Positions 1-16,970 are shown, numbered from the whole stretch's first letter. The stretch is 63,606 bases of DNA, filler included, from Candidatus Sysuiplasma jiujiangense (GCA_019721075.1; 4 parts of 4 records of this genome joined end to end with filler, not necessarily neighbours in it); one strand, 5' to 3'. Made by a program: numbers and translations. The notes: generated by a model not told the origin, from the letters alone.

Positions 1-92
1 TTGGGAACCACTTCCATAATTAATATCCGAGATCTCAGGCCCTCGAGGGTGAGATCTCAGCTCTCCTGGGAAAAAATTCGGCGATTGATGAA

Positions 93-1097
93 TCAGAGTT
101 TCCCGGATATCTCGTTTATCAGCCACCTTGCGTTGTTCATAACCCTATCAAGGTTCTCCTTCCCGAAATCTTCTCCTTGGGACCTGGCATTATCAAGCCA
201 TCCCTTCATGTATGCCGATGAGTCGTCTTTGAAGTCAAACCCAAAATGCGAACCAACCATGTAAGTGGAAAGTTCCGCCTCAGATTCAGCGATCCCTCTT
301 GGCAGTTTCTTGTAAAGATGCTCTAGTCTTGCATGTGACATCTCGTGTATGAGAGTATGTAACATATTGGTGTCCTCTCCCGGTATTTTCATGACCACGA
401 TTTTCTGTCCTTCATCCGAATGCGCAGTATATCCTCTTGCACCGTTCTTTATGGAACCTTCCTCCACAGTGTAATGCTCTTTTGCTATCTTCTTCAGGAT
501 ACCATACAGTTTTGTCGCCTTGACGTCCTCCTCAACGGGCTTTCCCTTTCCCGGTATCACCAACGTTTGTGATATGTCATATACAGTACCGGTGCTGAAG
601 ACATGGGCGGAACCGCCTCCCTGGAGATTGAACTTCTCCTTCACCAGCTCATCTATGGCCTCATCGCTCAGCCCTTCTCTTCTCTTTTCTTCTATGAAGG
701 CTTTCACCTTCCCGGGACCGTCCTTCCCTGCGATGCCCACAGGATAGAGTACTGATATGGGGTTGGCATCATCCTTGACGTCCCTTCCGAAGTATTTCCA
801 CTCATTTCTTGACCTGACAATTGAGGGATTTGGGAACTGGTCCTGAATCAGTATTGAGTTGAATGCGGAATAATCTCCCAACGTGCCTGAGTATTTCCGC
901 ATCTGCAGCAGCAGCTGATCCACGCTTGTCACCTTGGAGAGATCTCCGAGGATTCCCCATGCTTCCCTTTCCAGATCCCTGACTGAAGGTCCCGGATTCT
1001 TGATCCGTATTTCCATCACGGTCCTGCTGCTATCCATCAGTATGTGCTTTTTCTCTTCTCCCTTTCCCTTTGTTATCCACTTCTTTGCCATTTTCAT
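93..1097 (-). CDS. ArdC-like anti-restriction/ssDNA-binding protein (ArdC-N plus HExxH zincin-like domain) with basic N-terminal tag
   Basis: YSAFNSILIQDQFP...EWKYFGRDVK (ArdC-N-like); TLIHEMSH...EAELSTY...SSAYMKGW; N-terminus KWITKGKGEEKKHI. Confidence 0.75.
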   Translation of the reverse strand: MKMAKKWITKGKGEEKKHILMDSSRTVMEIRIKNPGPSVRDLEREAWGILGDLSKVTSVDQLLLQMRKYSGTLGDYSAFNSILIQDQFPNPSIVRSRNEWKYFGRDVKDDANPISVLYPVGIAGKDGPGKVKAFIEEKRREGLSDEAIDELVKEKFNLQGGGSAHVFSTGTVYDISQTLVIPGKGKPVEEDVKATKLYGILKKIAKEHYTVEEGSIKNGARGYTAHSDEGQKIVVMKIPGEDTNMLHTLIHEMSHARLEHLYKKLPRGIAESEAELSTYMVGSHFGFDFKDDSSAYMKGWLDNARSQGEDFGKENLDRVMNNARWLINEISGKL

Positions 1098-1240
1098 TCC
1101 TCCTTTCTGTGCACGTTCTCAATTTCAGGTTTATCCGGATCCAGGGGATCCACGATTATGGCCTTGCCGTCCATTGACCATACCTGCCTTGCGTACTGCT
1201 TCCTGCTCTTTATCCTGTATTTTTCCTCCTCCGTCTTCAT
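1094..1240 (-). CDS. Small hypothetical protein (48 aa, MKTEEEKYRIKSRKQ...)
   Basis: Hand-translated; GGAGG SD; ATGA overlap with the ArdC-like gene; TATA-like box near 1303-1312. Confidence 0.6.
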   Translation of the reverse strand: MKTEEEKYRIKSRKQYARQVWSMDGKAIIVDPLDPDKPEIENVHRKEE

Positions 1241-1418
1241 TCTTTCAACCTCCAGTATTTAAACCGACCAAAAAATCGACCTAGGATCGCCGCTTGAATC
1301 ATGTATATATAATAATAGGAGAGCAACCGCCGCCACATGCCATTTCCCATCATTTTCCCCTGATATCACGGCTTCCGCGTGGCTGGCATGTAAGTGGCAC
1401 ATGCCGTCCGGCATGCCA

Positions 1419-2597
1419 TCATTCCTGGCTATCATCCTTGCTGTCCCCCTTCTTCCTGTCGCCGTCGTCTTCCAACTTCTTCTCTCCATGCTTTGCTACC
1501 CCCTCTGCAAGCCTCTCCATCAGGTCCTTCATTTCAGGCGTGATCTTATTGCCCTTGCGGATCATGCTCTCCGCCATGATGTCGAATATCTCCTCCTTTG
1601 TCATCCCAGGCCTGTACGGAGTGTTCATAGGATCGAAGGGATCCTCCTGCATGGTTCCCGCAACGTCTTTAACCACGTTGACGTGCTGCTCGCAGTTCGG
1701 GCACACAGTGCGCTTGGCACCGCCCGTATACGTCCAGGAATAGCCGCAGTGCCTGCACTTCACCTTCACGCCTGTTTCCTCCTTTTCCTCCAAATCCGAC
1801 ACATATATCCGGTGATCACAGTTTGGGCACCTCGCCACTGCCCTGTGGCCGGAATAGTCCCACTCATAACCGCACTCGTCACACTGGACCGATACGGCAG
1901 GCATTCCATTCTTTATCAGCAACCTGTCCCCGTTCAGCAGTTCCAGTTCCTCCTGGAACTCCCTGAACCTCGTCTCCATGTACTCCTTCTTCTTTGCCTC
2001 ATATTTCTCCCACAACTCCTTGGCGGGAAGCTGGAACTTGACCATCATGACCTTTATCTCCGATATCCCCCTGTGGATCCTCGGGAACTTTCCAAGGGGA
2101 CGTTCCGGGTCGAACGTGTTCCTTGAAAGCAGTTTCATCTTCATGACCCCCTGCACATCGGTCGATTCAAACCGTATGTGCACCAGTTTCCTGCTCTGTC
2201 TTTCAATGAACGTCTCGTCCGGAACTGTGATGAAGGTCAGTATCTGCTTGTACCTGAATCCCTGGGTGAGCATCCCGAAGACACGGGCAGACATCTCCTG
2301 CCACAACCTGGCGTTTATCCCCAGTCCGGCATCGTCGAACACTATGACCGACCCGGGAGGAAGCCCCTGGTTCACCAGCGCAAGGAAATCCTTCACGGTG
2401 AACACGATCCTGTCCACTGAGAAATTGGGGTCAACCCTCTCGGCAAGCCGTATGGATGACAGGGATTTCCCTGATCCCGTGTCGCCAATGAACAGTGCTA
2501 TGAGGTTGCGGTTCTTCTTTATCCGGTTGCGGATCCACTGCAGCAGCCACACGCTGTTTTTCATTGGATCGTCTTTGCCGCTCGTATTCCCCGTCAT
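1419..2597 (-). CDS. Zot/pI-like P-loop ATPase with C-terminal double Zn-ribbon
   Basis: Walker A GDTGSGKS, Walker B VIVFDD, FITVP...IERQSR; four CxxC; start moved to MTGNT (ATGA overlap, matches copy B). Confidence 0.8.
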   Translation of the reverse strand: MTGNTSGKDDPMKNSVWLLQWIRNRIKKNRNLIALFIGDTGSGKSLSSIRLAERVDPNFSVDRIVFTVKDFLALVNQGLPPGSVIVFDDAGLGINARLWQEMSARVFGMLTQGFRYKQILTFITVPDETFIERQSRKLVHIRFESTDVQGVMKMKLLSRNTFDPERPLGKFPRIHRGISEIKVMMVKFQLPAKELWEKYEAKKKEYMETRFREFQEELELLNGDRLLIKNGMPAVSVQCDECGYEWDYSGHRAVARCPNCDHRIYVSDLEEKEETGVKVKCRHCGYSWTYTGGAKRTVCPNCEQHVNVVKDVAGTMQEDPFDPMNTPYRPGMTKEEIFDIMAESMIRKGNKITPEMKDLMERLAEGVAKHGEKKLEDDGDRKKGDSKDDSQE

Positions 2598-2956
2598 ATT
2601 CCCTCCTCTCCCCCTTCCGTGTACGTCATGTTCTCGGGAATCATCAGGCCAAGACGCTTGTATAACCTTGACAATGAACCAAGCCATTCGTACAGTGCCT
2701 CGTAACCATCCACAATGTATTGCTCGGATGGATAGTTTCCTGACAGTTCCCGGATGTTCTTCTGTGCCAGCCTGTATTCCTGCAGGTACTCAGGATCGTG
2801 ATACGCGGACATGATCTGGTGCAGGGACTTCAGCTTCTTTCCCCAGCTGTATAAATTCCGGGGATTGTCTGCGGCTTCCCCGGGATATTCTGAAGCCTTG
2901 ACCAGCAGGTCATACAGCATCCTGAGGCCTTCGGGCGTTTCAGTATCACTCATCAT
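2594..2956 (-). CDS. Conserved helical hypothetical protein
   Basis: Ortholog of 37471-37830. Confidence 0.8.
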   Translation of the reverse strand: MMSDTETPEGLRMLYDLLVKASEYPGEAADNPRNLYSWGKKLKSLHQIMSAYHDPEYLQEYRLAQKNIRELSGNYPSEQYIVDGYEALYEWLGSLSRLYKRLGLMIPENMTYTEGGEEGI

Positions 2957-3203
2957 TGTCCCTCCTTGCAATGAATCTTAGTGTCCTGGGCATGTTTACG
3001 AGGCTTATTGCCGTCCTCTCATCGCTCATGGGCATTCTTTTCCCACCATCATCGAATATCATAGCCAGGGGCGGTGCCCTCTCTCCCTCGTCCTCCTCCT
3101 CTTTGTTTGCCTGGTAAAGGTGCTTTATGAACTCGTTCTCTCTCATCTCGGGCAGGGAGAAGAACAGGTCCCGGAAGGCGTGTTCCTTTCCCCAGTCCTT
3201 CAC
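2946..3203 (-). CDS. Conserved hypothetical protein (85 aa)
   Basis: GTGA-coupled start; ortholog of 37820-38077. Confidence 0.75.
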   Translation of the reverse strand: MKDWGKEHAFRDLFFSLPEMRENEFIKHLYQANKEEEDEGERAPPLAMIFDDGGKRMPMSDERTAISLVNMPRTLRFIARRDNDE

Positions 3204-4048
3204 GACGTTTCTTGCCGTGCGGCTTCACTCCTTTTCTTTATGAGCGCCTGGAGGTATTCCGGATTGCTGAGCAGCTCCTCCACCTCCTTCTCGTATATCT
3301 TGGTCTCCTCCTCCGTCAACCTCCCCTTCCTCAGGACAGACATTATGCTGTCCTTATGCGCTGAGGTGATGGCCCCAATGAGCTCCCTGGACTGTCTTGT
3401 GCCTTCAGTGATGCTCTTCACGTCCCCTGTCTGCTTCAGCTTCGCAACTTCCAGGAGTGCATCCTTGAGCATCGTCGTCAGGTCGTCGAGGACTGACACA
3501 AACATGGCATACTTTGCACGATTGTAGTGCGCCCAGGCGATCTCGACAAACCATGGGATGTTTGATCCCTCGAGGTATTTTATATCGGTGCACCAGTACG
3601 TTATCCTTCCATTTATGCGGCCCTGCTCAAGTGTCAGGCCGGTTTTCTTCTCAACAAGTGACCATATTTCATCGCTGACAAAGAGTCGATCCCAGTCCAT
3701 GAAGTCGGACGTGGGAACCATGATAAATACTCCGTTGCGGGTCCTGAGCGTTCTTGAGTAGAAATAAATCATGGGTACGTAGACCAGGACTGATACCAGT
3801 GTGTACGTGATGCCCACCAGGTCATACTCCACGTATGCCAGGATAACGCCGATGATGAGCTGAGGCAGCATCGCCCTCGCCAGCGACCGGAGGGATACGA
3901 ACTTCATGAGCCGCTGGATGTTCTCCCCAGATTTCGTTTCGAAGGCTTTCTTCAGCTCTTCCCTCCTCTCCTCCGCCGATCTCTGGGAATTCTCGAATGC
4001 GTTCTCTCTTCTCCGTTGAAAGAATCCCCTGCCCATTGCGTCCTTCAT
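3200..4048 (-). CDS. Two-TM membrane protein with C-terminal coiled coil
   Basis: Hydrophobic hairpin near aa 60-97; ortholog of 38074-38925. Confidence 0.85.
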   Translation of the reverse strand: MKDAMGRGFFQRRRENAFENSQRSAEERREELKKAFETKSGENIQRLMKFVSLRSLARAMLPQLIIGVILAYVEYDLVGITYTLVSVLVYVPMIYFYSRTLRTRNGVFIMVPTSDFMDWDRLFVSDEIWSLVEKKTGLTLEQGRINGRITYWCTDIKYLEGSNIPWFVEIAWAHYNRAKYAMFVSVLDDLTTMLKDALLEVAKLKQTGDVKSITEGTRQSRELIGAITSAHKDSIMSVLRKGRLTEEETKIYEKEVEELLSNPEYLQALIKKRSEAARQETS

Positions 4049-4884
4049 ATCCTGATGACCTCCCTTCTCTCCCTCTCCAGGAGGTATTTGCGGGCAGTGA
4101 AGAGCGCGATTATTATGGCGAACGCACTGGCAACGAAAGCCCTCGCGATTCCGTACTCGTACTGCGATAGGGTGTACTGGAGCGACGGCGGCTGCGGCCC
4201 ATAGTATTTCTGGATCGGTATTGTGGCAACAAGTTCGTTCGGGAACTTGTATACGGAATTCCCGAGGCCGATGGTCACAGTTGCCGTCGATCCGGAAATG
4301 TTGAACTGCACAATCTTCGAGCCATACACATTGCCGGAGAGGAGCTCCTGGCCGTTCAGGTATATGGAGTATGACTCGTTCTGGGTGCTCTGCATCGTCA
4401 CCGACCAGTCAGGATACATGAGTGCCCCTGCCGTGCCCGGTGCAACGGTCAGGAACTGGTCCTGTCCGGGGTACGAAGAGGATACGGACACGGACTGGAT
4501 AACCTTGTTTGACAGCGGCCCCGTGATAATATCGGCAAAGGTGTACGAAATCCCCTGGAAAACGAGTAACGCATTCGCAGGGGCACCCCCCGGCACGTTC
4601 CACACATACGTGAAATTGAATGCCCCCAGGGAATCTCCGGATTCCTTCACCGAGCCGTTGATCGAGAACGTGAAGGTACCGGATCCATACAGGTAGACAT
4701 GCCAGTCCGGATAAACCGAGACTCCGGAAGAATTGGCAGGCACATAGATGTATAAATCGGGATCCTGGTAAGTGGAATAAATGATGACATGTCCGGATGG
4801 AGTTGGAGATGCATCGACCACGGGAACGAATACAAGCCCAATAAGGGCTGTAAAAAGAAGAAGAGGCATTACGATTCGATTCAG
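4045..4884 (-). CDS. Secreted, C-terminally anchored protein with a duplicated beta domain; probable CTG start
   Basis: Signal peptide, YPDWHV/YPDWSV repeat, C-terminal TM; ortholog of 38922-39758. Confidence 0.8.
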   Translation of the reverse strand: MNRIVMPLLLFTALIGLVFVPVVDASPTPSGHVIIYSTYQDPDLYIYVPANSSGVSVYPDWHVYLYGSGTFTFSINGSVKESGDSLGAFNFTYVWNVPGGAPANALLVFQGISYTFADIITGPLSNKVIQSVSVSSSYPGQDQFLTVAPGTAGALMYPDWSVTMQSTQNESYSIYLNGQELLSGNVYGSKIVQFNISGSTATVTIGLGNSVYKFPNELVATIPIQKYYGPQPPSLQYTLSQYEYGIARAFVASAFAIIIALFTARKYLLERERREVIRI

Positions 4885-5177
4885 GGGTTTCTACCTCCTT
4901 CTTGAGGCTGTTTTGGCAGTATTCTAATTCGCTCGAGGAAGATCTTCCTCTTCAGGAATTCCTTTACCCTGATCCTCTTCTCCCTGATCCTCGAAGCGGT
5001 CAGGGACATGCCCATGATGATCCCGGAGGTTGCATTGGTCGCCGAACCGGAAGAGGGGAAGAAGAACTTGTGGAACATGCTCTCGATGGCTGGAAGATTC
5101 AGGCCAAGCCTTGTAAAGATCCACAGACCTATTATGAGGATGATGACTGCAATTGCCGCATCGGTGATCTTTCCCAT
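4881..5177 (-). CDS. Small membrane protein with basic C-terminus
   Basis: N-terminal TM; ortholog of 39755-40051. Confidence 0.8.
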   Translation of the reverse strand: MGKITDAAIAVIILIIGLWIFTRLGLNLPAIESMFHKFFFPSSGSATNATSGIIMGMSLTASRIREKRIRVKEFLKRKIFLERIRILPKQPQEGGRNP

Positions 5178-5181
5178 GATC

Positions 5182-6228
5182 TCACTCCATCCTTGGGGCT
5201 ATGATTCCCTTCACTTCGATGTGCTCACCATTTGGCCCTATCTTCCTTGTAGAAAACTCCACTGGATAGTCCCGCTTCATCCTGAGGGTCAGAACCGCCT
5301 CTTTTGGGTTCTGAAATTCATTCCTTCCCAGCATTGTCCGTATTGTTGATCGAAGATATTCTGTGGCGAAGGTTGCCTTCTCTGACGTAACCCATCCTGA
5401 TGGAACATCCCTGGGCTGCCTTGATGAAACTGCACTGACTGTTTCAATCAGCTCACGTTTCGGCTTGTATGAATCCGGATCATCAACAGACCTGTAGATT
5501 CCAACACTGGCCTTCTTTGTATCCCCTTCGAGCGAGAATCTCACTGTATCATCCTTTGTTTTCTGGAGGAAGTTCAGGAATGGCCTGAGCTGATCCCCTT
5601 CCAGCCTGACATCCCATGAATCTTGTTCGTAGTCCAGGGATGGCCAGCGAAGATTTGTTCCGCTTTTTGGCGGATTGTTCATCCATTCGGTTGAAAATTC
5701 CTTCCCATAGGATGTGGGATCAAGATATCCGTTTGGAAGATTGGTCTCCATGGTTTCCTGAATCATGGCAACATGTGACGGGTCCACGGATATGAAAGTC
5801 AGCGTGCCATTGTCAATGGTTATCTTCATGTTACCGGACGAAAAGAACATCTTCAGGTCCTCAGAATTCAGGTTCAGTTTTCCCCGCAGGTTGTCGATTC
5901 CGATGAGTTCCCGGACATCCACCTTATCGCCATAGGAAATGTTACGCTGTTTCGAGGGACCGGCTGCATTTTCCGTGGTTACTGATACGGGTTCAGGCGC
6001 TCTGGCCGGCTTCGCTGTCGCCGATGATTCTTGAAGCAGCATTCCTTCATACGGGGCGTAAAGGTCAAGCCTCTGGTTGGTCTTGATGAGCCTTGCCCTC
6101 TTGCCCTGCTTCCTCAGTTCCTGCACCTCATCGTATGCCAGGTTCCTTGGTACGCCGAACGCCTGCCTCTTCTTCACTGGATATATTTTCCTCTCCTTTC
6201 CCTTTCCTTTTGTTCTAAATTCTGTCAT
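5182..6228 (-). CDS. Divergent PCNA-like sliding clamp with tagged N-terminal extension
   Basis: SVDPSHVAMI, FATEYL, DYPVEF and terminal IIAPRME match PCNA signatures. Confidence 0.7.
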   Translation of the reverse strand: MTEFRTKGKGKERKIYPVKKRQAFGVPRNLAYDEVQELRKQGKRARLIKTNQRLDLYAPYEGMLLQESSATAKPARAPEPVSVTTENAAGPSKQRNISYGDKVDVRELIGIDNLRGKLNLNSEDLKMFFSSGNMKITIDNGTLTFISVDPSHVAMIQETMETNLPNGYLDPTSYGKEFSTEWMNNPPKSGTNLRWPSLDYEQDSWDVRLEGDQLRPFLNFLQKTKDDTVRFSLEGDTKKASVGIYRSVDDPDSYKPKRELIETVSAVSSRQPRDVPSGWVTSEKATFATEYLRSTIRTMLGRNEFQNPKEAVLTLRMKRDYPVEFSTRKIGPNGEHIEVKGIIAPRME

Positions 6229-6590
6229 TTCATTCTTCCTCCGATCCTCGTCTTTCCTCCTTCCTTGAATCCTCTTATATCGGCATAAAAAACAGAGGAG
6301 ACCTCTTTTCCGCTGCTGTAAAAGCTTGCTGCTTCCTCTCCTAGATATACTTGATTTATCCCAGACAAACGCATACCGTTGATGCTGAATTCTCTTGAAG
6401 GCCCCTTGAACTCAAACGGATCGTCATCGCTGTTCTCGAACCCGGATGATCTTATTATTTTGGCAACCTTTTGTGGTGCGAATTTCAATAAGTCCCTGGA
6501 ATTCACCCTTCGCTGAACCGAAAATTTTCTCTTCTCTATTGGCACTACCCTCTTCTTTCCGTTTTTCCTTACTGTCCTGAATGTTGTCAT
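6225..6590 (-). CDS. Tagged small basic protein
   Basis: MTTFRTVRKNGKKRVVPI; ortholog of 41130-41495. Confidence 0.8.
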   Translation of the reverse strand: MTTFRTVRKNGKKRVVPIEKRKFSVQRRVNSRDLLKFAPQKVAKIIRSSGFENSDDDPFEFKGPSREFSINGMRLSGINQVYLGEEAASFYSSGKEVSSVFYADIRGFKEGGKTRIGGRMK

Positions 6591-6914
6591 TTAATCCTCC
6601 TCAAACTTTCCCGTTGCCACATACGCAATGTCCGAATCGATCACTCTTTCCATCCTCTCGTTACCCTTATATTTTGATCTGAGCAGGGAGAGTTCCGCCA
6701 TTGTGTCAGCTTTGCCATATCTATCTACGGCTTTCCCCAGAGACCTCTTCCTGATATCATCCGCCAGGTCCACAGCATATCCTGCCAGGGACAGGCCATG
6801 GATGTGAATCTTCTTCAGGTCTGTCGTGCTGAGAACCTTGGATATCCCACTGAATCCGACACCTTTTCTCTTGGGATATGCTCTCCCGTCTTTCCTCCTT
6901 CCAAACTCAGTCAT
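6591..6914 (-). CDS. Tagged small basic helical protein (paralog of the next gene), putative DNA-binding
   Basis: LAGY...RKRSLGKAVDRYG...DIAYV; ortholog of 41498-41830. Confidence 0.8.
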   Translation of the reverse strand: MTEFGRRKDGRAYPKRKGVGFSGISKVLSTTDLKKIHIHGLSLAGYAVDLADDIRKRSLGKAVDRYGKADTMAELSLLRSKYKGNERMERVIDSDIAYVATGKFEED

Positions 6915-7251
6915 TTTTCTTCCCTCCCGATACATACCTTATGTCCTGCACTATCCTGGTCTTCAGCTCCGGCTTGTTGTAGTCCAGCCTGTACAACTCC
7001 CCGAGTTTCCGGAGCGTTTCCTTCTTCCCGTATTTTCCAATTGCCCTGTTCAATGCTGCATGCTTCGCGCCCTCCGTGCCGCTGATGTGATATCCCAATC
7101 CAGTGAGTGTCCCGGGATGCCTTATCCCCACTCCAGTCATGTCCTCGATCTGCTTCGGCGTCAGTTGCCTCTCCTTGCGGGTGATCCTGGTGCCCATTGG
7201 CACCACACTTTTCTTTCCGTTTTTCTTTATTGTCCTAAACTTTGTTCCCAT
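6907..7251 (-). CDS. Tagged small basic helical protein, putative DNA-binding
   Basis: MGTKFRTIKKNGKKSVVPM; GTLTGLGY...HAALNRAIGKYG...DIRYV; ortholog of 41823-42167. Confidence 0.8.
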   Translation of the reverse strand: MGTKFRTIKKNGKKSVVPMGTRITRKERQLTPKQIEDMTGVGIRHPGTLTGLGYHISGTEGAKHAALNRAIGKYGKKETLRKLGELYRLDYNKPELKTRIVQDIRYVSGGKKND

Positions 7252-7255
7252 TCTT

Positions 7256-10200
7256 TCACCTCTTCGTGTCCAGCTTGTATGTCTTGGTCTTGCCGCCGCT
7301 GGTAGCGACAACGTCTATGGGTGGCTTGCGCAGTTGTATGGCTGCTATCCCGATCCCTGCCAGTGTCAGCATGATAATGAGAAAGTTAGACAGGCCTCCG
7401 AAGAATGATATCAGTGTCCCAATTGTGAACGGGTTTGATGACAGGGAATTGGAGACAGAAAAGGGCATGACCATGGAATTGCTCGCAGAATTGTTGTTGA
7501 AAACAACCACCTTTATCCCGTACGTTCCCGAATCAAACTGTCCCTGGTTCATTGTGAGGTTGAAATATCCAATCTCCCCTGATGGCGTGTACGTGGAATT
7601 TATCGCTGTGGGGGAGTACATAGTGCTGCCGATGAAGGCTTCAACCGCCGTGATCCCATGCAGTGACTGCACCTTGATCGTGTAATAAGTCATAGGCCCA
7701 ACGGAGTGCTGCTCATAGGAAAGGACGATGCTGCTGTTCGTTCCCTGTGGTAGGACGCTGATGTATTGAGTTGAAGTCGAAGATGCCCCGAGACCATCGG
7801 TCACGGTGACTGATATGGTGTAGTTTCCCGCATGACTGAAGTAGAATAACACCGACTGCCCGGAATACGATGACCCGTTGATATCCCATGAATAGGAGAA
7901 GGTCGATGAGTCCGGCGCTGTGGCAGTGGCATTCAGGGAGAGCATGGTCCCAACGGGTATCTCCTTGGGGGGCGAGAATGAAATGGTTGGTTTGGCAGGT
8001 ATCATCCTCACTGTGAGGTCCTGAGTCCATGTTTTTCCGTTGTCGTAGGAGAATGTAGCGATCACAGGGTTGAACTCGTTGTATACAGGAAATTTGTAGC
8101 TTATGCTTAAGCCGGTGAGTGTCTGGCCATTTGGAAATGACCATGACATATTGTATGGGCCCTGGGCATCCCAATTAGGGGTGGCAGTGAAACGAAATAC
8201 CTGTGTGATGTTCAGGTTGGAAGAATAATTGAACTCAACAGGGGGAGGCAGGCTCTGTATGCTGATGTTCCTGGATCCGGTTGCTCCGTTTGCGCTAGAG
8301 ACGGTGAAATGAACAGAATAATTGCCCACAGGGAAAGAGTAAACGGGGTTCGGCAGCAGGGACGAGTGGTTTGGGGAGAAGGACCAGTTGTATGAGTATC
8401 CCGATCCACCCAGCACACTCGAACTGAACTGCACCGCCAGCGGTCCGAGACCGGATGTCTGGTTTGCGGCTATGGCGACGAAGAGGTGCACCTGGACTGT
8501 GAAATTCTGTGTGTCCACGTAACCGGATGAATCCGTTACCCTGGCCTCTATGGTATCGGGCCCGGATGACGAGAATACGTGCTGGATTGAAGTTCCGGAT
8601 TCTCTCTGCCCCGATGGGAAAATCCATGCTATGTTGTATGGGGCAATGCCGCCAGTCACATTGGCATATAATGGAAATTCCTCGGAAACTACAGCCTTTC
8701 CGGACCATGATACTGACACTGCCGGGTCACTGTATACTGTTACACTTACGGTAGATGATGCGTCCTTGCCGAATGAATCGGAAATGATGAGCTGAACCGT
8801 GTAATTGCCGGGAGTGGTGAATGAGTATGACACGGTTGCATTCTCATACATATGCCCGGCAATAAGCCATGTGTAACTGTAGGGCCCCACGCCTCCCGAT
8901 CCTGAAGACCGGAATGCATCCGTGACATTGGCATCAAGTAACGTCCTGGATGCTATTATGGATGCCACCGGGTATGATTCCACTGTGACGTCCAGGACAT
9001 GGGTTGAACTATCACCTTGGGAATCCTCCACAAGGAGCTTCACGGGATAAATTCCCGGCCTTGAGAATGAATAGTTAAGGGAGGATGCACTTCCGGAGAG
9101 GGAGCCGTTCACGTACCATGAGTATGAGTACCCCGGAGTGCCTCCTGTGATTACTGAGTTGAAGCTGTCAGTTACGTTGGGATCCACATTTGGGTACTGT
9201 GCAGATATCGTCACTGATGGAATGGAATTAATCCGGATCTCAATGGAAGAGGATGCCGAATTTCCAGCACCATCCGATACTTTCACTGTGACATTATAAT
9301 AACCTGACAGGCTGAAAGAATATATGAGATCCTGCTGGTACCCCACGTATCCGATGCCGGATATGGACCACGTGTAATTGTAGAATGGCGTCCCGCCCGA
9401 TATGGATGAATTGAAGTACACTGGAAATCCTATGTCCGTTGTAGTCCGGGATTCGGAGGGGGATACAACTGGCAGGGGTTTCACCGTGATATCCATGTAT
9501 GTGCTTGCCTTTGATCCCTGGCTGTCCACGATGAGCAGGGAAATATTATACGGGCCGGTTTTCGGGAAAGAATACTGGAAATACAGCCCGGATGAGGTGT
9601 TGACGCCATTCAGGTACCAGTAGTAGTTGTATGGGGCCGTACCATAGGACCCGAATCCTTCCCAGTACGTGGTCGTGGAAACATCCGTTTGGCTGGATCC
9701 CTCAATGAGTGCTGACGGTTTGGCAATCACCTTGATTGTGATAGACGATGCCGTTTGCTCGCCCAGGGAATCGGTTACCGTGAGGTTGACCGCGTATGAC
9801 CCGGGATCTGTGAATTGGAGGCGGAACTCCTGGGAGTAGTTTATGATCTTGCTGCCCAATGACCATGTATAATTGAAGGGTGAGCTCCCTCCGGTCACCT
9901 GGGCGAACAGCGTGTCATTTATCCCCTGATCCACGGTCGCATACTGGGCCTGTATGGACACCGTGGGGTCAGGGTTCACAACCTCGTTCACGGTATTTGA
10001 TGCCTGGTTTCCGCTGGCATCGGTGATTGTGAGCGATACAGTATATGTGCCGGAAGAGGTGAATGTGTAGTTCACATAGGAAGTGGTATACGCCTCACCG
10101 TTCACTGTCCATGCATACGTATAGCCTGGTGTCCCGCCGGATATGGATGCAGAGAAATTGACCCATATCCCGACGTCAGTAGGATTATGGACCACGTGAA

Positions 10201-12703
10201 TCACAACCGAAGGATCAGGGTTCACGGTCTCCGTAAGAGAGTAAGAAGCTGTATGGCCATCCCCGTCAGTGACGGTGACATTGACGTAGTATGATCCCGC
10301 CGAGGTGAAAGAGTAGGAGAATGCTGATGCGGTGGATTCCCGTACGCCATTTATGGTCCACGTATATGTGTCGGTGCCAGTCCCTCCAGAAACAACGGAA
10401 GAGAAGGATATGGAATTGCCAGCGTCAGTGGGGTTCTGCGAGCTGCTCACCGAAACAAGAGGGTTGTTGTTTATGGTAACGTTCACAGACGAGGAATACG
10501 TTTCGCCTAGGCTATCAGTTACTGTAATTTCGACAACATAGAACCCTGCGGAACTGAATGAGTAGGTAAAGTCTTGAGACGTGGACACCTGCGTTCCATT
10601 TATGATCCACGAATATGCATAGGGTGCCGTCCCTCCTGATGGGCTGGATGAAAAAGTTATATTATACCCGACATCCGCCGAACTGACTGAGGAGGATGCG
10701 GATACTATTGGATCGGAGTGCACGGTTTCGGATGTCGTGGCAGTTGCTGTTTCACCTGCCCCATCTGTTATGGACAGATCCTCGGTATATGATCCAGCTG
10801 CCAGGGTGGTGTTGAACGCAGGGGTCGTATAGGTGGACCCGGTACCTGTAAGGCTGTAAGTGTAGCCTGTGCCTGTCCCACCCATAACCGCTGTCAGGAA
10901 GAACTGCGGCACCGCCGCATCGGTGGTGCTCACGATGGGTGGGGTGCCGGAGACGGAGATTGATCCACCCGTAATATTCAGGGCGGACATTGATGCGCCG
11001 CCGCCCAGGTTCCCATTGTCAACTGCAAAGAAATACCATCCTGCCGAGAGTGTTTCCGTACCTGAATAAGCCGTAGCTCCTTGACTGACCCACGCACTGC
11101 TTCCGATGATGGATGTCCAGTCCACCCCGTTGTTGGATATGAACATTGCCCCGTTGTCGTCATATTCGCCATTAAACGTGTAAGTCCCGGCAGCGAAATA
11201 GAGCACCGTTACAGCCATGTACCCTTCATCGTATGCACCACCACTTGGCTCTGTATTCAGGACACCCAGTGATGAAGGGTATGCCACGTTGGGCCGACCA
11301 AGGAAGGACTGCCCGTTGTAATATGGATTTCCGTAGTCAAACCCGAATCCACCGTCATTGAACGTGCCCGTCCAGGTTGACACGTTGTTCGGGAAGGAGT
11401 TTGGCATCGACAGCGGGTAGGAACTGATGTCGGAATACGGAACAGCCCCCTCTGTCGGCCCTGAGGTGTACGAATATACGTAGAATACGCCCGGAGTCAT
11501 CGCATTGATGATGGCTGCCTGCGGATCGGGGTAAACGATCTGAGTCAGGGATGGGCTTTGAGCGGTATAACCATTAGTATCCGTGATGACCACATATACT
11601 GAATTTGATCCACCGGATGTGAAGTCCTCTGTCCACTGGCTGCTTGACGTGGACTGCACCGAATTCCCATTGAGATAGAAGTTGTAGTTGCTGTAGGAGC
11701 CGGAACCGCCAGAACCAGAAGCCGTGAACACAACATTCTGCCCCACATCTGACGGATTCAAATTTGAGGTTATCGAGACTCCGAGAGTGGGGTCAATTGT
11801 TTCCGCGAATGTCGGTGACGTGCCGGTCAAGCCAGAGGATGTGGCCACCACGTAGAAGTCATATGGACTTGAGGAAGAGGAAGATTCTGATGTTGTGTAT
11901 GTAGACCCCGTGGCACCCGAAATTGCCGTTCCTGATCCTGATGCACCGGAGTACCACTGATAAGTGTATGACCCTGAGCCGCCGGTTGCCGATGCGGTGA
12001 GGGTGAACTGCTGGCCGACATCGGCTGGATTTTGGCTTGAACTGACGGAAACGACAACGGGGTTCTCGACAACCTGGGTGTATGAATTGGATGCGGAACC
12101 AGCGTCTGTGGAAATCGACAGTGAAATGGTATATGACCCTGCAACTGAGTCCGTCCATGTCGGGTTGGATGCAGTTGTGCTTGAGAGAGATCCTGCGGAT
12201 GCGCTCCATGAGTATGCCCCTCCGTTCACATCTTCGAAGTTCGCATTGGACGATAAGTCGACTGTCCCGGATGTCACAACCGGGTTCGGGGAGCCCGATA
12301 CCGACGTGAGCGATGGGGCGACAGGGGACCCTGAATAATCGCTGGGATATGTTCCGGCGGTTCCCGAGGTGCCTCCGGAGACAGAATATCCCGGGACGCC
12401 ACCCAATGACCAGCTTATGGTCGGCGACGTCGATGGGTTCCTCAGTGTCACTTGGTATGTGATAGTACCACCGGGTGCAGCGCTTCCATAGCCGCCTATG
12501 GACCATGACGAGATCTCGGTAGACAGGCCTGATTCATCCCATGTCCATGTGTATGTAGTAGTCGTCGTGTCCGGGTTGTATGCAGCGATCTGCTTTTCCG
12601 CCGGGGCAAGCGTGATCAGGAGCATGAGGGATACAAATATCAGTGCAATGGGAACGACGTACCTTTTCCTGCCGTTCAGGGCACGGGCAATGATGGATTT
12701 CAT
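7256..12703 (-). CDS. Giant PKD/Ig-repeat surface protein (1815 aa) with a PA14-like insert
   Basis: N-terminal signal, many GGTxPYxYxW...GxYxVxLxVxD repeats, C-terminal TM and short tail. Confidence 0.9.
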   Translation of the reverse strand: MKSIIARALNGRKRYVVPIALIFVSLMLLITLAPAEKQIAAYNPDTTTTTYTWTWDESGLSTEISSWSIGGYGSAAPGGTITYQVTLRNPSTSPTISWSLGGVPGYSVSGGTSGTAGTYPSDYSGSPVAPSLTSVSGSPNPVVTSGTVDLSSNANFEDVNGGAYSWSASAGSLSSTTASNPTWTDSVAGSYTISLSISTDAGSASNSYTQVVENPVVVSVSSSQNPADVGQQFTLTASATGGSGSYTYQWYSGASGSGTAISGATGSTYTTSESSSSSSPYDFYVVATSSGLTGTSPTFAETIDPTLGVSITSNLNPSDVGQNVVFTASGSGGSGSYSNYNFYLNGNSVQSTSSSQWTEDFTSGGSNSVYVVITDTNGYTAQSPSLTQIVYPDPQAAIINAMTPGVFYVYSYTSGPTEGAVPYSDISSYPLSMPNSFPNNVSTWTGTFNDGGFGFDYGNPYYNGQSFLGRPNVAYPSSLGVLNTEPSGGAYDEGYMAVTVLYFAAGTYTFNGEYDDNGAMFISNNGVDWTSIIGSSAWVSQGATAYSGTETLSAGWYFFAVDNGNLGGGASMSALNITGGSISVSGTPPIVSTTDAAVPQFFLTAVMGGTGTGYTYSLTGTGSTYTTPAFNTTLAAGSYTEDLSITDGAGETATATTSETVHSDPIVSASSSVSSADVGYNITFSSSPSGGTAPYAYSWIINGTQVSTSQDFTYSFSSAGFYVVEITVTDSLGETYSSSVNVTINNNPLVSVSSSQNPTDAGNSISFSSVVSGGTGTDTYTWTINGVRESTASAFSYSFTSAGSYYVNVTVTDGDGHTASYSLTETVNPDPSVVIHVVHNPTDVGIWVNFSASISGGTPGYTYAWTVNGEAYTTSYVNYTFTSSGTYTVSLTITDASGNQASNTVNEVVNPDPTVSIQAQYATVDQGINDTLFAQVTGGSSPFNYTWSLGSKIINYSQEFRLQFTDPGSYAVNLTVTDSLGEQTASSITIKVIAKPSALIEGSSQTDVSTTTYWEGFGSYGTAPYNYYWYLNGVNTSSGLYFQYSFPKTGPYNISLLIVDSQGSKASTYMDITVKPLPVVSPSESRTTTDIGFPVYFNSSISGGTPFYNYTWSISGIGYVGYQQDLIYSFSLSGYYNVTVKVSDGAGNSASSSIEIRINSIPSVTISAQYPNVDPNVTDSFNSVITGGTPGYSYSWYVNGSLSGSASSLNYSFSRPGIYPVKLLVEDSQGDSSTHVLDVTVESYPVASIIASRTLLDANVTDAFRSSGSGGVGPYSYTWLIAGHMYENATVSYSFTTPGNYTVQLIISDSFGKDASSTVSVTVYSDPAVSVSWSGKAVVSEEFPLYANVTGGIAPYNIAWIFPSGQRESGTSIQHVFSSSGPDTIEARVTDSSGYVDTQNFTVQVHLFVAIAANQTSGLGPLAVQFSSSVLGGSGYSYNWSFSPNHSSLLPNPVYSFPVGNYSVHFTVSSANGATGSRNISIQSLPPPVEFNYSSNLNITQVFRFTATPNWDAQGPYNMSWSFPNGQTLTGLSISYKFPVYNEFNPVIATFSYDNGKTWTQDLTVRMIPAKPTISFSPPKEIPVGTMLSLNATATAPDSSTFSYSWDINGSSYSGQSVLFYFSHAGNYTISVTVTDGLGASSTSTQYISVLPQGTNSSIVLSYEQHSVGPMTYYTIKVQSLHGITAVEAFIGSTMYSPTAINSTYTPSGEIGYFNLTMNQGQFDSGTYGIKVVVFNNNSASNSMVMPFSVSNSLSSNPFTIGTLISFFGGLSNFLIIMLTLAGIGIAAIQLRKPPIDVVATSGGKTKTYKLDTKR

Positions 12704-13014
12704 GCCACCCCCCCCACCACGGGCAGGTCATGCACAATCATGCCCATTATCAGTACGATGGAAATGAATAAGGCGAGCAGGATGACAAATATAGGCAACG
12801 CAAACGGTCCCATGGATGCGGCCACCGACACGAATGATGCCATGACTCCGGAAATAACCCCAAAAATAACGCTGAGCATTAAGTTAAACAGTTCAGCCAG
12901 GTAGTACAGGGACATTGCAAAAAAGTACAGGATGATCTGTATGACGTTGTTAATGGCATCCAGCGGGTTCAGCCATGAGATCAGGGAAGGCGGGCTCACC
13001 CCATAATATGACAT
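12700..13014 (-). CDS. Small hydrophobic protein (coat/pilin-like paralog 3)
   Basis: Hydrophobic helices; ortholog of 48628-48942. Confidence 0.8.
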   Translation of the reverse strand: MSYYGVSPPSLISWLNPLDAINNVIQIILYFFAMSLYYLAELFNLMLSVIFGVISGVMASFVSVAASMGPFALPIFVILLALFISIVLIMGMIVHDLPVVGGVA

Positions 13015-13292
13015 TATTCACTCACCATATCCTTTATCGGGACCGTGAAGGAGAATACCAGGAACAATCCTACCAATGTCATGCCTCCCGATGCCACAAT
13101 GATTGTTGGGGCCAGGAATCCGTAATTCCCCTGCCATGCATTGAATACCGAGACAAAATCCCCTGTCACTGAATGAAATAGTGGCAGGATCAGGGTATTT
13201 TCCAGATCCGAGAGGAGGTTCTGGAAGAACGCATATAGAACCTTCAGGAACCCCCAGAGGGGGGACGACTGAATGGCAGAGGCTATGGACAT
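13014..13292 (-). CDS. Small hydrophobic protein (coat/pilin-like paralog 2)
   Basis: YGFLAP...PIKDMV; ortholog of 48942-49220. Confidence 0.8.
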   Translation of the reverse strand: MSIASAIQSSPLWGFLKVLYAFFQNLLSDLENTLILPLFHSVTGDFVSVFNAWQGNYGFLAPTIIVASGGMTLVGLFLVFSFTVPIKDMVSE

Positions 13293-13299
13293 TCATGCC

Positions 13300-13683
13300 T
13301 CACACATCGTCTTCCATGCTCACGAGATCCCTCATTGGCCCCACAAGGGCAAGTATCAGGAAACCAGCAAGCAAAGCGATCCCAATGCCGAAGACAAACA
13401 TCAGGGGGCCGTAGACTCCATACCCGGCTAACGAAAAACCGAATCCCTGGAACATGATATTGATGGAGTTGGAGAACCCGGAGAATATGCCTCCGAACAT
13501 TGTTCCCAGTCCGTTGACTATTACCTGCAGGAAGCCCATCAGGAGATTCCATATGCTGTTGAAAACGGTACTGCCCAGCGAGGATGAGGACGTGGCCATG
13601 GGAATGAAGGTCAGGGAGAAAATAGAGATCTTCATCCTCGCCTTCCTGATTTTCTTCACATGGAATATGAGCCGGTTTAACAT
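13300..13683 (-). CDS. Small hydrophobic protein with basic leader (coat/pilin-like paralog 1)
   Basis: Start MLNRL after a GGGAGGG SD; YGVYGP...PMRDLV; ortholog of 49232-49609. Confidence 0.8.
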   Translation of the reverse strand: MLNRLIFHVKKIRKARMKISIFSLTFIPMATSSSSLGSTVFNSIWNLLMGFLQVIVNGLGTMFGGIFSGFSNSINIMFQGFGFSLAGYGVYGPLMFVFGIGIALLAGFLILALVGPMRDLVSMEDDV

Positions 13684-13684
13684 C

Positions 13685-14914
13685 TCACTTCCCTCCCTTC
13701 TTCGCCGAATTCTGCCTGTCGAACACGCCGATGTCGTACCACGGAGCCACGAGTATGGCAGCAACGAATGTGAATATGGTGCCTATGAGGTACCCGGTCT
13801 GCTCTGCACTGTAAGACCCGATGATGGTCGTTAGGCCTGTGTTGCCATACACGTGGAAGCTGATTGATATGCTCGTAACGTTGCTCTGAACGAGGATCAT
13901 GATGTTCTCTGACTGATTTCCCGTCAGGGATGATGATGAAATCGAAAAGGAGACTGACGTTAGGTTTTTCAGTGACTGGTATGCGAACGGCTCGAAACTT
14001 GATACGTTGAAACCCGTACCCAGTGAAACGTTTGCGGGATGCGAATCAGTAGAAGATATAGATATCTTGGACACTGCGAAGTTGTTCAGCTCCGCAACGG
14101 TGAGGTTGGTACGGATCCATACCTGGTTTGAGTATGAGGTGACGTTGTTCACTGTACTGGATGGGAAATCAAAGGTCGCCGTTCCGTTGACCTGGCCAAA
14201 GGGTATCGCCCCAGAGGATCCGTAAACGTACGAGGTGATGGACTCGGATTGGAGCACCGAGGAATTGTCGGTTCCCGCTACAAGGGCATGGCCGATCCCC
14301 GCAGAGAGGAAAATCATGAGGAAGACGGATATGAGGGCGATAAACAGCCCTAAGAACTTTCGGGCCGCCTTCCCTGATCCGGATTCCTTAAAATTGAGGG
14401 ATTTTACCTTTGGTCCTTTCTGTCCCATATATCCCTTCCTGTCAGACCAGGCTGCATCCCATATGACAACGAGACCGAAAACCAGTATGGATACCAGGTA
14501 CAGTACGGCTGCCTCGTTGCCGTTGAACGCGGGCACGATGATGTACTGGGCAAAGCCAAATTCGTATCCCAGGAAACCGCCGATGAATCCTCCAAGGACA
14601 AAGCCAGCGAATGCCCGCCAGATTAGATCCAGGATGCTCTTCCCGGGTGGCGTCAGGGTTTCGATAACGGCCCAGACGACAGCCCCAAATATGATCGCCG
14701 GGGCAATTATCCCATCATTGAATACAACAACATGACCGACTATGGTATACGTGGGTCTTGCCAGCAGGCCAACAAAAAGCATGAGGGTCGCAAGCAGCCC
14801 TATGACCAGTTCGCCGATTCTCCATTTGCCCACGTGGGTCGGGATGTTCTTTTTCGTCTTTCCAGAACTCTTTGCCGGGTTGCCGGCTTTTGAACCTTTA
14901 TTTTTCTTTGCCAT
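13685..14914 (-). CDS. Polytopic membrane protein with extracellular beta domain and C-terminal TM
   Basis: About 5 N-terminal TMs, N-x-S/T-rich domain; ortholog of 49611-50840. Confidence 0.85.
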   Translation of the reverse strand: MAKKNKGSKAGNPAKSSGKTKKNIPTHVGKWRIGELVIGLLATLMLFVGLLARPTYTIVGHVVVFNDGIIAPAIIFGAVVWAVIETLTPPGKSILDLIWRAFAGFVLGGFIGGFLGYEFGFAQYIIVPAFNGNEAAVLYLVSILVFGLVVIWDAAWSDRKGYMGQKGPKVKSLNFKESGSGKAARKFLGLFIALISVFLMIFLSAGIGHALVAGTDNSSVLQSESITSYVYGSSGAIPFGQVNGTATFDFPSSTVNNVTSYSNQVWIRTNLTVAELNNFAVSKISISSTDSHPANVSLGTGFNVSSFEPFAYQSLKNLTSVSFSISSSSLTGNQSENIMILVQSNVTSISISFHVYGNTGLTTIIGSYSAEQTGYLIGTIFTFVAAILVAPWYDIGVFDRQNSAKKGGK

Positions 14915-14986
14915 CTCTACTTCTCCCCCACGGAAGAAGCGGAGCCTGAACTCACGGAAATTAGCATCCGCCTCTCCGTAAGTTCA
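14915..14986 (-). promoter_or_regulatory. Structured RNA leader (12-bp hairpin, pseudoknot, alternative SD-sequestering hairpin)
   Basis: Stem 14947-14958/14975-14986 with one G-U pair on the minus strand; same architecture at 50841-50917. Confidence 0.6.
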
Positions 14987-15283
14987 CTTACCCTTACGAC
15001 GTCCTTCATTAAATAGAACACTCTTCTTGTATCGAGATCCCCTCGAAGCAGTTCGCAGGTGAATCACATCAACCCGACCCATTTCCCCAAGACCCCGTAA
15101 GATTTTCTGGACACGGTAGATGGATGACCTACTGGAATCACTCAAGTATCCATCTCGGACCAGGATCGTGGTAATTCTTTTACAAGAGAATGACAAATTC
15201 GGATACCTGTCAAGAACAGAGAACACTCTCTGTTCCTCTTCAGACAGCAGCGACCTCCTTTCCTCTGGCGACTGTAACTGCAT
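14984..15283 (-). CDS. Putative winged-helix DNA-binding protein
   Basis: Basic 99 aa with LSEEEQRVF...RVQKILRGL...GRV pattern; coupled to the upstream gene. Confidence 0.5.
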   Translation of the reverse strand: MQLQSPEERRSLLSEEEQRVFSVLDRYPNLSFSCKRITTILVRDGYLSDSSRSSIYRVQKILRGLGEMGRVDVIHLRTASRGSRYKKSVLFNEGRRKGK

Positions 15284-15822
15284 TATTTCGATACTTTATC
15301 ACCATCCTTGCTTTCAGTATCTGGAGCTGTATCCGGACCCCACGTCAGCTCTATTTCACAGGATCCAAGGAGCAGCTTCTCGTTCTTCTTGCAGCTCCTG
15401 ACCAGGCTCCTCTTTCCCGCCGGACCAACGGAATACAGGACAAACTGGTACTTGTTCCGGCTGTACGACAGGAGATATTTCTCTCTCTCGGGGTTAACGT
15501 TTTGGGTTAACGGATTGACGGATTCATGCGTTAACCTTTTAGATGGCCTATTGAAAATGAATTCTGATGGCTTTCCCGGAATACGGAGCTGCTGGAAGTG
15601 TTCGCACTTCTCCACAGGCCTGAATGATCTCTTCGGGTCCATCTGGTTATGTAAGATGCAGACAGGGCAGATTCCCATCCAGTATCCATCCTCGTAGGAA
15701 CCGGAGACCTGGGACGTCCTTCCCCGGTTAACGGGTTTACGGTTAACAGGGTTAACGTTAACCTTGTGAGCTCTTCTCTGTCTCATGTACTCTGCCATCT
15801 TTGCTGGGTCCTTGTAGGGCAT
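15283..15822 (-). CDS. Hypothetical protein with MPYKDP...EYMR start, VN repeats and CxxC/CxH
   Basis: ORF track; stop/start coupling. Confidence 0.7.
   Translation of the reverse strand: MPYKDPAKMAEYMRQRRAHKVNVNPVNRKPVNRGRTSQVSGSYEDGYWMGICPVCILHNQMDPKRSFRPVEKCEHFQQLRIPGKPSEFIFNRPSKRLTHESVNPLTQNVNPEREKYLLSYSRNKYQFVLYSVGPAGKRSLVRSCKKNEKLLLGSCEIELTWGPDTAPDTESKDGDKVSK
15493..15762. repeat. Cluster of seven GTTAAC palindromes
   Basis: GTTAAC at 15493, 15506, 15530, 15727, 15742, 15751 and 15757; GTTTAC variant at 15735. Confidence 0.8.
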
Positions 15823-15956
15823 CAGGTCTTCCTCCCGAAATTATGATACTTCCTGGCAGCTGCTATGTCTGACTGGATTACCTCAAAGAAGATCTCCTCT
15901 TCACCAGGTGTGAGGTCCAGCTGGACCTTGAGGTTTCCGTAAGTTAGGGTCTTCAT
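15822..15956 (-). CDS. Small hypothetical protein (44 aa, MKTLTYGNLKVQ...)
   Basis: Hand-translated; fills the gap with ATGA and TGATG overlaps. Confidence 0.6.
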   Translation of the reverse strand: MKTLTYGNLKVQLDLTPGEEEIFFEVIQSDIAAARKYHNFGRKT

Positions 15957-16723: not shown

Positions 16724-16970
16724 GGTTTGACCTCCGTTAAGGGTAGATTTCCAGTAGAAAATAAAGTAAGAAGTGAGTAAGTAAGTAAGTTCAAGAAAGA
16801 GTTTAATAATTTAATTATTAAAGTCAATTGTAAAAAATAAGATAATAGCGGTTTTCCGAGAACCACCATTTTTACTTTCCTTATTAAGAAAAGTCCTACA
16901 TGGCTAAAATACACGTTCTCCGAGACATTGTTAAACTCTGCACTTTTCTTAATAAGATTAATAAGAAAAC
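16724..16970. promoter_or_regulatory. AT-rich intergenic region with a 15-bp inverted repeat; candidate origin or operator
   Basis: CTTATTAAGAAAAGT 16880-16894 / ACTTTTCTTAATAAG 16942-16956; GTAA tandem repeats near 16763-16790. Confidence 0.5.

Follow-up and report, generated by a model that had tools for sequence, protein, structure and literature searches.

A short N-terminal sequence module, here called the tag, precedes otherwise unrelated proteins in a mobile element of which two copies lie in the 63.6-kb window (the whole stretch of DNA that was analyzed) from Candidatus Sysuiplasma jiujiangense. The shared motif exists, is strictly N-terminal, is modular, is selected at the protein level, and is restricted to mobile elements. 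Judged from the sequences, it is an element-specific module that has become joined, more than once, to accessory proteins of no common origin in the integrative, virus-like elements of acidophilic Thermoplasmata. The beginning of the tag is predicted by AlphaFold2 (AF2), with moderate or low confidence, to be a free-standing beta-hairpin. We tentatively read this hairpin, at somewhat short of an even chance, as a common address that keeps helper proteins with the DNA of the element and sends them along with it between cells.

The window joins contigs C17, C18, C19, and C24 of one Thermoplasmata metagenome-assembled genome (2.29 Mb, 55 contigs), with filler runs of N at positions 18678-18777, 36654-36753, and 52581-52680; C17 covers positions 1-18677, C19 positions 36754-52580, and C24 positions 52681-63606. 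The two elements named in the original prediction are diverged minus-strand copies of one gene cluster; they sit on two separate contigs, C17 and C19, and each is cut off by the start of its contig. A third, partial copy is present on contig C40 outside the window, and a complete copy in a Ferroplasma genome (G133) is about 19 kb long. Every named relative of the proteins treated here belongs to the Thermoplasmata. Eight proteins of the two copies start with M-T-x-F-R-T-x3-5-G-K-x-R-V-x-P, their start codons lying on the minus strand at 6228, 6590, 6914, 7251, 41133, 41495, 41830, and 42167. The tagged genes, which are tightly packed and overlap their neighbors by a few bases, contain the following features.

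6043 to 6228, minus strand: N-terminal module (residues 1-62) of the PCNA-like protein D (gene 5182-6228), with a hairpin at residues 1-20, a helix at 28-40, and a beta-hairpin at 45-61, all predicted.
5182 to 6042, minus strand: predicted disordered linker and PCNA-fold body of protein D (AF2 and Foldseek against PDB).
6486 to 6590, minus strand: tag (about 35 amino acids [aa]) of the small basic protein A (gene 6225-6590, 121 aa), from regular expression and alignment.
6810 to 6914, minus strand: short-loop tag variant (MTEFGRRKDGRAYP) of the small protein B (gene 6591-6914), whose body is paralogous to that of C.
7144 to 7251, minus strand: tag of the small basic protein C (gene 6907-7251, 114 aa), whose body is a predicted three-helix bundle that is DUF5771-like (AF2 and Pfam).
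1032 to 1097, minus strand: diverged tag (KWITKGKGEEKKHI) of the ArdC-like protein (gene 93-1097), from an alignment of homologues.
40948 to 41133, minus strand: N-terminal module of the second PCNA-like protein (gene 40057-41133), from regular expression and alignment.
41391 to 41495, minus strand: tag of the second copy of protein A (gene 41130-41495), from regular expression.
41726 to 41830, minus strand: W-I-T tag variant of the second copy of protein B (gene 41498-41830, GTG start), from regular expression and alignment.
42060 to 42167, minus strand: tag of the second copy of protein C (gene 41823-42167), from regular expression.

The regular expression matched nine times in the window, the ninth match being a chance one in an overlapping frame at 13092. 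The original prediction had also counted nine tagged proteins, with the ArdC-like protein as the ninth. The start of this protein lacks the proline and hence was missed by the regular expression; it is a diverged W-I-T-K version of the tag, and a conserved one, because its relatives keep the same start. Of 102 full-length ArdC-like homologues, 77 begin with x-K-W-I-T-K...G...K-H-I/V, and a few have the canonical F-R-T...V-Y-P form. The motif as first described was correct in its N-terminal start and too short in its extent. The aligned consensus reads M-T-x-F-R-T-x2-K-x-G-x-K-R-V-x-P-x3-R-K-x4-R-x-L-x3-D-L, a conserved stretch of about 35 residues that comprises the hairpin, a basic linker, and the start of a helix and that extends to 62 residues in the PCNA-like group. 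The M-T start is nearly invariant, and the most conserved positions (F4, T6, and P17) are not basic.

When the 2.29-Mb genome was translated in six frames (21,897 frames of at least 50 aa), a loose form of the pattern gave 28 matches. Ten of them, all on the element contigs C17, C19, and C40, sit 3 to 4 residues after the start codon of a gene, and the remaining 18 are internal or within short noncoding frames. A strict form gave 13 matches, comprising 9 in the elements and 4 elsewhere, none of the latter N-terminal. A profile of 41 positions searched against 1.84 billion representative proteins (E ≤ 0.001) returned 65 matches, ten of them at E ≤ 1e-10. The match began at residue 1 in 58 proteins, at residue 2 in 2, and at residues 8 to 15 in 4, in which the upstream start was probably miscalled. 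The sole internal match was to three stretches of a repetitive protein that looks ABC-transporter-like by eye, and on that basis it is likely a false positive. Thus, the occurrence at random positions that would have spoken against the original prediction was not observed, and the motif is N-terminal in 64 of the 65 database representatives. Against Pfam at E ≤ 10, the tag and the 62-aa module matched only HIRA_B (3 of 11 tags, best E of 0.069) and scattered helix-turn-helix families; a profile search of PDB gave nothing below an E of 0.17, and scores in the ESM Atlas were all below 0.8. No description of the motif was found in a full-text literature search whose range excluded bioRxiv supplements and subscription journals. 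The hairpin is therefore an undescribed domain without a significant Pfam or PDB match.

Two of the clamp (PCNA-like) orthologues share 15 identical residues and only 4 identical codons; selection therefore acts at the protein level. This bears on the possibility that the shared start reflects a constraint on translation or stability, such as gene overlap with translational coupling, N-terminal processing, or a degradation signal. The tight packing of the tagged genes and their nearly invariant M-T start would suit such a constraint. However, conservation reaches over 20 to 62 residues with many synonymous changes, which does not fit a nucleotide-level constraint near the start codon, and the predicted hairpin would be a folded element. 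We therefore regard this explanation as very improbable.

The tag was proposed to be modular, and this holds well beyond the window, as the same 20 to 62 residues stand before at least eight unrelated bodies overall. The window itself contains four body families, the minimum originally claimed, although two of the small-protein pairs are paralogues: the PCNA-fold protein D, the ArdC-like protein, protein A, and the B/C pair, in which B (6591-6914) and C (6907-7251) are related to each other (BLASTP E value of 4e-8). Families were separated by pairwise comparison, since single-linkage clustering failed where mosaic linkers chain unrelated proteins together. The body of protein D has no sequence-level Pfam match. 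Its predicted two-domain clamp fold has AF2 predicted local distance difference test (pLDDT) values above 90 for most of residues 100 to 348, and its top Foldseek matches in PDB are all PCNA (best E of 3.3e-9, probability of 1.0, target TM scores of 0.45 to 0.54).

The ArdC-like protein (93-1097) matched 1784 plasmid records by tblastn, of which 1004 are typed as conjugative, and aligned over residues 5 to 330 with an ArdC-like protein of the Enterococcus faecium plasmid pT17-1-4 (pairwise E value of 2e-16). Its HExxH motif, HEMSH, is the sole peptidase motif among the scanned element proteins. Relatives carry PF08401 or PF18818, and the window protein alone scores only 0.044 for PF18818. By full-length homology together with the HExxH motif, it is classed as a true relative of ArdC, a protein that combines an ssDNA-binding N-terminal domain with a zincin metallopeptidase. 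Among the small proteins, C resembles DUF5771 (PF19075) at an E value of 3.4e-4 and 21.2 bits, below the Pfam cutoff of 26.2 bits; the second-element copy of B reaches 14.6 bits, likewise under the cutoff, and the first-element B (open reading frame [ORF] 6591-6935) gave no DUF5771 match at E ≤ 0.1. A precomputed PF19075 match exists for 15 of 57 protein C homologues.

Further bodies were found among database relatives. In one the tag precedes a DUF3560 body (1.2e-34) and in another a 'GKIYAAVITGTDPKYG' domain, the latter sharing with the clamp protein only residues 1 to 61, at 61% identity; taken together, the two have only the first 61 to 64 residues in common with it. At least two more bodies, those of P0137 and P0149, are uncharacterized. 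Tagged proteins of the genomes G335 and G372 carry the Pfam domain Fusello_VP2_Capsid (PF25632) at E values of 3.5e-22 and 1.1e-18 (79 and 67.8 bits, respectively, with a cutoff of 27), while the small proteins of the window have no VP2 match at a Pfam E of ≤0.1. In the G372 protein, the VP2 domain separates the hairpin from the remainder of the 62-aa module, and the hairpin still begins at residue 1. Tag variants have also been swapped among families, the short-loop form F-G-R-R-K-D-G-R-x-Y-P occurring on B, on a member of the C family, and on clamp-type proteins. The observation that one orthologue pair carries different tag variants (EFGRRKDGRAYP versus GWITRKYRGKSQAVP) was reproduced.

Natural deletion or chimeric forms occur as well: P0123 consists of the tag and the C-terminal part of a small acidic element protein, p125; P0132 of the N-terminal module and only the last 70 residues of the clamp; and L033:~10526 of a 43-aa tag and the end of B. 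These forms suggest frequent recombination at the tag boundary, or they are assembly chimeras. Beyond an I-K/R-H-P-G start common to both, a direct relationship of the VP2 domain to the B/C body found no support (hhalign probability of 3%). Foldseek with the small protein C gave no match at E ≤ 0.001, the ESM Atlas search with the 'GKIYAAVITG' domain gave no usable match, and PDB sequence searches with the ArdC-like protein and with the ATPase of the element gave nothing significant.

In the AF2 model of protein C, strands 4-10 and 13-19 (pLDDT of about 72) are followed by a loose linker with a short helix and then by a confident helical bundle; the residues between hairpin and body have pLDDT values of 56 to 58, and no confident link connects the two. 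In the clamp protein D (mean pLDDT of 84), the hairpin is weak, at about 55, whereas the helix 28-40 and the second hairpin 45-61 reach 76 to 87 before a disordered linker (residues 64-93) leads to the clamp. The hairpin spans 16 to 20 residues, is amphipathic, and has a tight N-G or G-K-G turn, with the basic linker and the start of the helix next. Inspection of the sequences revealed no hydrophobic stretch after the hairpin of the kind expected for a Sec, Tat, or class III (pilin-type) signal peptide. The net charge of residues 1 to 30 is +6 to +10 in proteins A to D and +4 in the ArdC-like variant, compared with -6 to +7 for the bodies.

These charges raise the question of whether the hairpin is a generic nucleic acid-binding arm that increases the DNA affinity of replication or chromatin proteins in the host, with no role in packaging or transfer. 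Such an arm would account for a strongly basic N terminus on bodies of which several are neutral or acidic, and for the fact that all identifiable bodies handle DNA; a free-standing hairpin, as predicted here, is also what is seen in DNA-binding arms. However, the ArdC-like subgroup keeps the shape of the hairpin (W-I-T-K...G...K-H-I) and loses much of the charge, and therefore it appears to be shape rather than charge that is conserved. Nor does DNA binding require a strict N-terminal place, yet this place is kept in 64 of 65 proteins and even where a domain is inserted behind the hairpin, and the residues under the strongest conservation are the nonbasic F4, T6, and P17. On balance, we consider a purely intracellular DNA arm rather unlikely, although it is the main rival of the address reading.

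Alternatively, the hairpin could be a docking motif for a protein hub, bound through beta-strand addition and serving replication or regulation instead of export. The hub might be a host factor or an element protein such as the membrane protein m282, the acidic p125/p85 pair, or the ATPase. A precedent for this type of contact is the hairpin of the HIRA B domain, which binds ASF1 by beta-strand addition. The motif has stayed highly conserved among elements in which the bodies retain only 24 to 29% identity, small acidic proteins are conserved beside the ATPase, and there is the weak likeness to the Pfam HIRA_B hairpin (PF09453). This likeness is nevertheless below significance and an analogy at most, and AF2 left the hairpin undocked on the clamp body in cis. 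Moreover, the tag also occurs in a second element type (G335 and G372) in which only the stretch of the N-terminal module was matched by the module proteins of the window (tblastn, E ≤ 1e-3), and it is therefore hard to name a single element-encoded partner. Docking for replication or regulation thus seems quite improbable to us.

Among 401 Thermoplasmata genomes, the tag was found in nine and in no conserved core host gene; it was always located in mobile-element clusters. The unlinked host proteins that could have contradicted the original prediction were thus not encountered. Only one of the ten genomes of the host's order, the host itself, contains the tag, and eight of the nine tag-bearing genomes belong to another family; the element therefore moves between lineages. 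The m282 marker was likewise present in nine of the 401 genomes. Six genomes have both marker and tag, within about 3 kb of each other in all six. In G242, which seemed to have the marker only, a diverged tag was found at the expected place (E of 0.0054), and in G084, which has the tag only, some 300 bases separate the tagged protein from an ArdC-like gene that is truncated where the contig ends. The other tag-only genomes, G335 and G372, contain the second element type: both encode a resolvase and an AAA ATPase, and G335 also encodes a tyrosine integrase and an 1852-aa protein; tblastn with the module proteins of the window (E ≤ 1e-3) detected only the N-terminal module stretch in them.

Gene order is largely kept across ten related loci in named Thermoplasmata genomes: membrane proteins, small hydrophobic proteins, a giant PKD surface protein, and none to three small tagged proteins are followed by the tagged clamp, three membrane proteins, two small acidic proteins, the DnaA-like ATPase, and the ArdC-like protein. 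In the complete Ferroplasma genome, the 19-kb unit is present twice at 99.9% identity, 29.4 kb apart (L028-L030, G133:C1:1810703-1859109), and contains an MCM helicase, a tyrosine integrase, two tagged proteins, an ArdC-like gene, and the block of membrane proteins. These copies, the second of which reaches the contig end, are separated by DNA with an integrase and a type II restriction-modification gene. Upstream of a related element on a 556-kb Thermoplasmata contig (L003:15-1622), a DUF5131 gene is split by an intein that contains a LAGLIDADG endonuclease; the G372 element, too, has DUF5131 at its flank. The element recurs nearly unchanged in acid mine metagenomes from eight studies.

In the first copy, the tagged genes are accompanied by four further features, all on the minus strand.

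7256 to 12703, minus strand: 1815-aa PKD-repeat surface protein with a signal sequence and a C-terminal anchor (Pfam PKD_4, 1.6e-66; conserved synteny).
1419 to 2597, minus strand: DnaA-like P-loop ATPase with zinc ribbons (phrog_5484, 6.6e-12).
2594 to 5177, minus strand: conserved block of the small acidic proteins p125 and p85 and the membrane proteins m282, m274, and m98 (synteny).
12700 to 14914, minus strand: three small hydrophobic proteins and a 409-aa membrane protein, the upstream part of the conserved module (synteny).

The PKD-repeat gene is directly upstream of the tagged genes. The N region of its signal peptide (12652-12703 and, in the second copy, 48580-48631) reads NGRKRYVVPIA, like the second strand of the tag; this likeness is confined to the two PKD copies of this genome and absent from the other loci with a PKD start in the fetched DNA, and it is probably due to chance. 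The proteins encoded at 12700-14914 matched no family in Pfam or PHROGs. For the ATPase, the longest ORF (1419-2687) begins 30 codons before the position at which every homologue begins (M-T-G-N-T-S...); position 2597, which abuts the end of p125, is probably the true start. Two small acidic proteins are conserved immediately upstream of the ATPase (window positions 2594-3203 and 37471-37830), namely, p125 (net charge of -7, with a conserved C-terminal T-Y-T-E-G-G-E-E-G-I tail) and p85 (net charge of -5), and they are candidates for a chaperone or adaptor of the basic tags.

Elsewhere in the window, the right end of C17 (~17445-18677), where an NYN-domain gene is located, shows a 10- to 40-fold increase in summed contig depth, and three independent runs share one loose end at position 18116. 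This position is probably the junction of the element with host or more widely shared sequence, and the junction with its jump in depth therefore suggests that only part of the population carries the element. C24 (52681-63606) has a G+C content of 36 to 39%, compared with about 50% for the remaining window, and given this low value it may belong to another organism or be a foreign island.

Overall, the gene content leans towards a virus-like, membrane-based vehicle. The ATPase is 30% identical to a DnaA-like protein of the lemon-shaped Haloferax virus LSV-48N (2e-17) and matches a fusellovirus at 3e-3, and the body of protein C matches gp24 of the spindle-shaped virus TPV1 at 5e-4. In TPV1, gp24 follows two adhesin-like genes; the tagged genes have a comparable place, with the giant surface protein on one side and membrane proteins on the other. 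The IMG/VR viral contigs yielded no relative of the clamp protein, as none of 14 pattern matches among them was confirmed.

In the address reading, the hairpins of all tagged proteins would bind the same ligand, which could be the DNA of the element itself or a conserved protein of the element located where assembly takes place, and we consider direct binding to DNA and binding to such a protein about equally probable. A changing set of DNA-handling helpers (the clamp, the ArdC-type antirestriction protein, DUF3560, VP2-type, and other small basic proteins) would thereby stay on the element genome, leave the cell with the DNA, and act on arrival. We prefer this reading because a short, conserved, strictly N-terminal module on changing bodies resembles known sorting labels, such as the capsid targeting sequence (CTS) of phage T4, the cargo peptides of encapsulins, the trafficking domains of polymorphic toxins, and the signals that mark payloads of contractile injection systems, and because the recognizable cargo (ArdC-type protein, VP2, clamp, and DUF3560) is useful when DNA enters a cell or coats DNA in particles. 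Both the common ligand and the packaging and delivery are inferred. The clamp family is also consistent with it, as its 64 homologues have a mean pairwise identity of 67 to 68% in the N-terminal module compared with 27.5% in the PCNA domain. The packaging signal advanced in the original prediction is plausible, and the cargo types fit it, since ArdC-type proteins travel with DNA and VP2 has been purified from SSV1 virions. Its strongest form, a dedicated cargo-loading signal of an archaeal virus-like particle or vesicle that is read by a conserved element protein and suffices to load any fused protein for delivery with the DNA, which would make it the first label of the T4 CTS kind in archaea, is in our estimate unlikely.

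Several points weigh against an address. No receptor has been identified for the tag, and most of the observations would also be explained by a plain DNA-binding arm: proteins that handle DNA could simply use a very basic hairpin to bind it within the cell. The tag of the B/C family is less well conserved (50%) than the body behind it (60%). A conserved cleavage motif was not seen behind the tag; the conserved S/T-x-x-D/E stretch coincides with the helix start placed by AF2. The only ATPase of the element is of the DnaA-like initiator type, and the comparison of the element proteins with Pfam and PHROGs, in which most genes had no match, identified no particle, capsid protein, or translocase. 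Finally, no RNA run containing the element was among the 24 runs listed.

In viruses and plasmids of archaea without an icosahedral capsid, the choice of cargo in particles is largely unexplained, and the full-text literature search found no protein-sorting signal or comparable N-terminal label for them. The tag offers a concrete, testable handle on this question: a 20-residue label common to a clamp, an antirestriction protein, a virion DNA-binding protein, and several uncharacterized proteins. It marks unannotated proteins as likely early-acting helpers or counterdefense factors of Thermoplasmata elements, and if the tag were sufficient for loading, it would provide a protein delivery tool for acidophilic archaea. 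Should the tag prove to be no more than a DNA-binding arm, it would still be an undescribed domain without a Pfam match.

Comparison with known folds gave local likenesses only. Within the tag, G-K-K-R-V-V-P-I-E-K-R resembles the G-R-V-V-I-P-K-E-I-R signature of AbrB/SpoVT domains, and the module of the clamp protein has the order beta-beta-alpha-beta-beta. Homology to AbrB/SpoVT was rejected, as a six-frame search of the genome with PF04014 found five places, none of them on C17, C19, or C40, and hhalign of the tag alignments with these five AbrB domains gave probabilities of 0.1 to 0.2%. The hairpin may also be similar to the three-stranded DNA-binding sheet of AP2 and the Tn916 integrase and to the first hairpin of Sso7d.

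Among mobile elements of archaea, the pT26-2 family and pR1SE-type plasmids are mid-sized and integrative and combine a conserved block of membrane proteins with an ATPase, and they have been proposed to use a new device for DNA or protein transfer or to spread by vesicles (PMC6972569). The likeness to the present element is one of layout only; no sequence similarity to the pT26-2 family was found, the ATPase having no tblastn match in 72,556 plasmid records, and the parts of that account available to us mention no common N-terminal module (PMC6972569). Fusellovirus VP2 binds DNA and was purified from SSV1 virions (PMC3367457), of which it is a virion protein (PMC4158269). SSV1 VP2 matches the tagged proteins of related Thermoplasmata elements at 3e-6 (tblastn), and the match begins at query residue 28, behind the tag. 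DUF3560, in turn, is a common plasmid gene (PMC6965323).

Transfer of ArdC-type proteins with DNA in bacterial conjugation was shown for the protein of pSa, which has antirestriction activity, and in the polyvalent proteins of phages and conjugative elements described by Iyer et al. (2017), domains of these types (ArdC-N and a zincin metallopeptidase) enter the new cell together with the DNA, as has been predicted or shown (PMC5512222). However, polyvalent proteins string their activities together in one giant polypeptide, whereas here separate proteins have a short N-terminal module in common.

The closest precedent is the CTS of phage T4. It is a conserved N-terminal label on diverse internal proteins (IPI-III and Alt), several of which are antirestriction factors, and it suffices to load the phage's own and foreign proteins into the particle for delivery with the DNA (PMC3012670). 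The T4 CTS binds the scaffolding core of an icosahedral prohead; unlike in the T4 system, the element proteins had no match to a capsid, scaffold, or prohead-protease family in Pfam or PHROGs. The T4 label is about 10 residues long and is cut off by the prohead protease. To say that no system of this kind has been described would be too strong in view of T4 (PMC3012670). The CTS and the tag have no sequence likeness, and they are alike in being conserved N-terminal labels on very diverse proteins.

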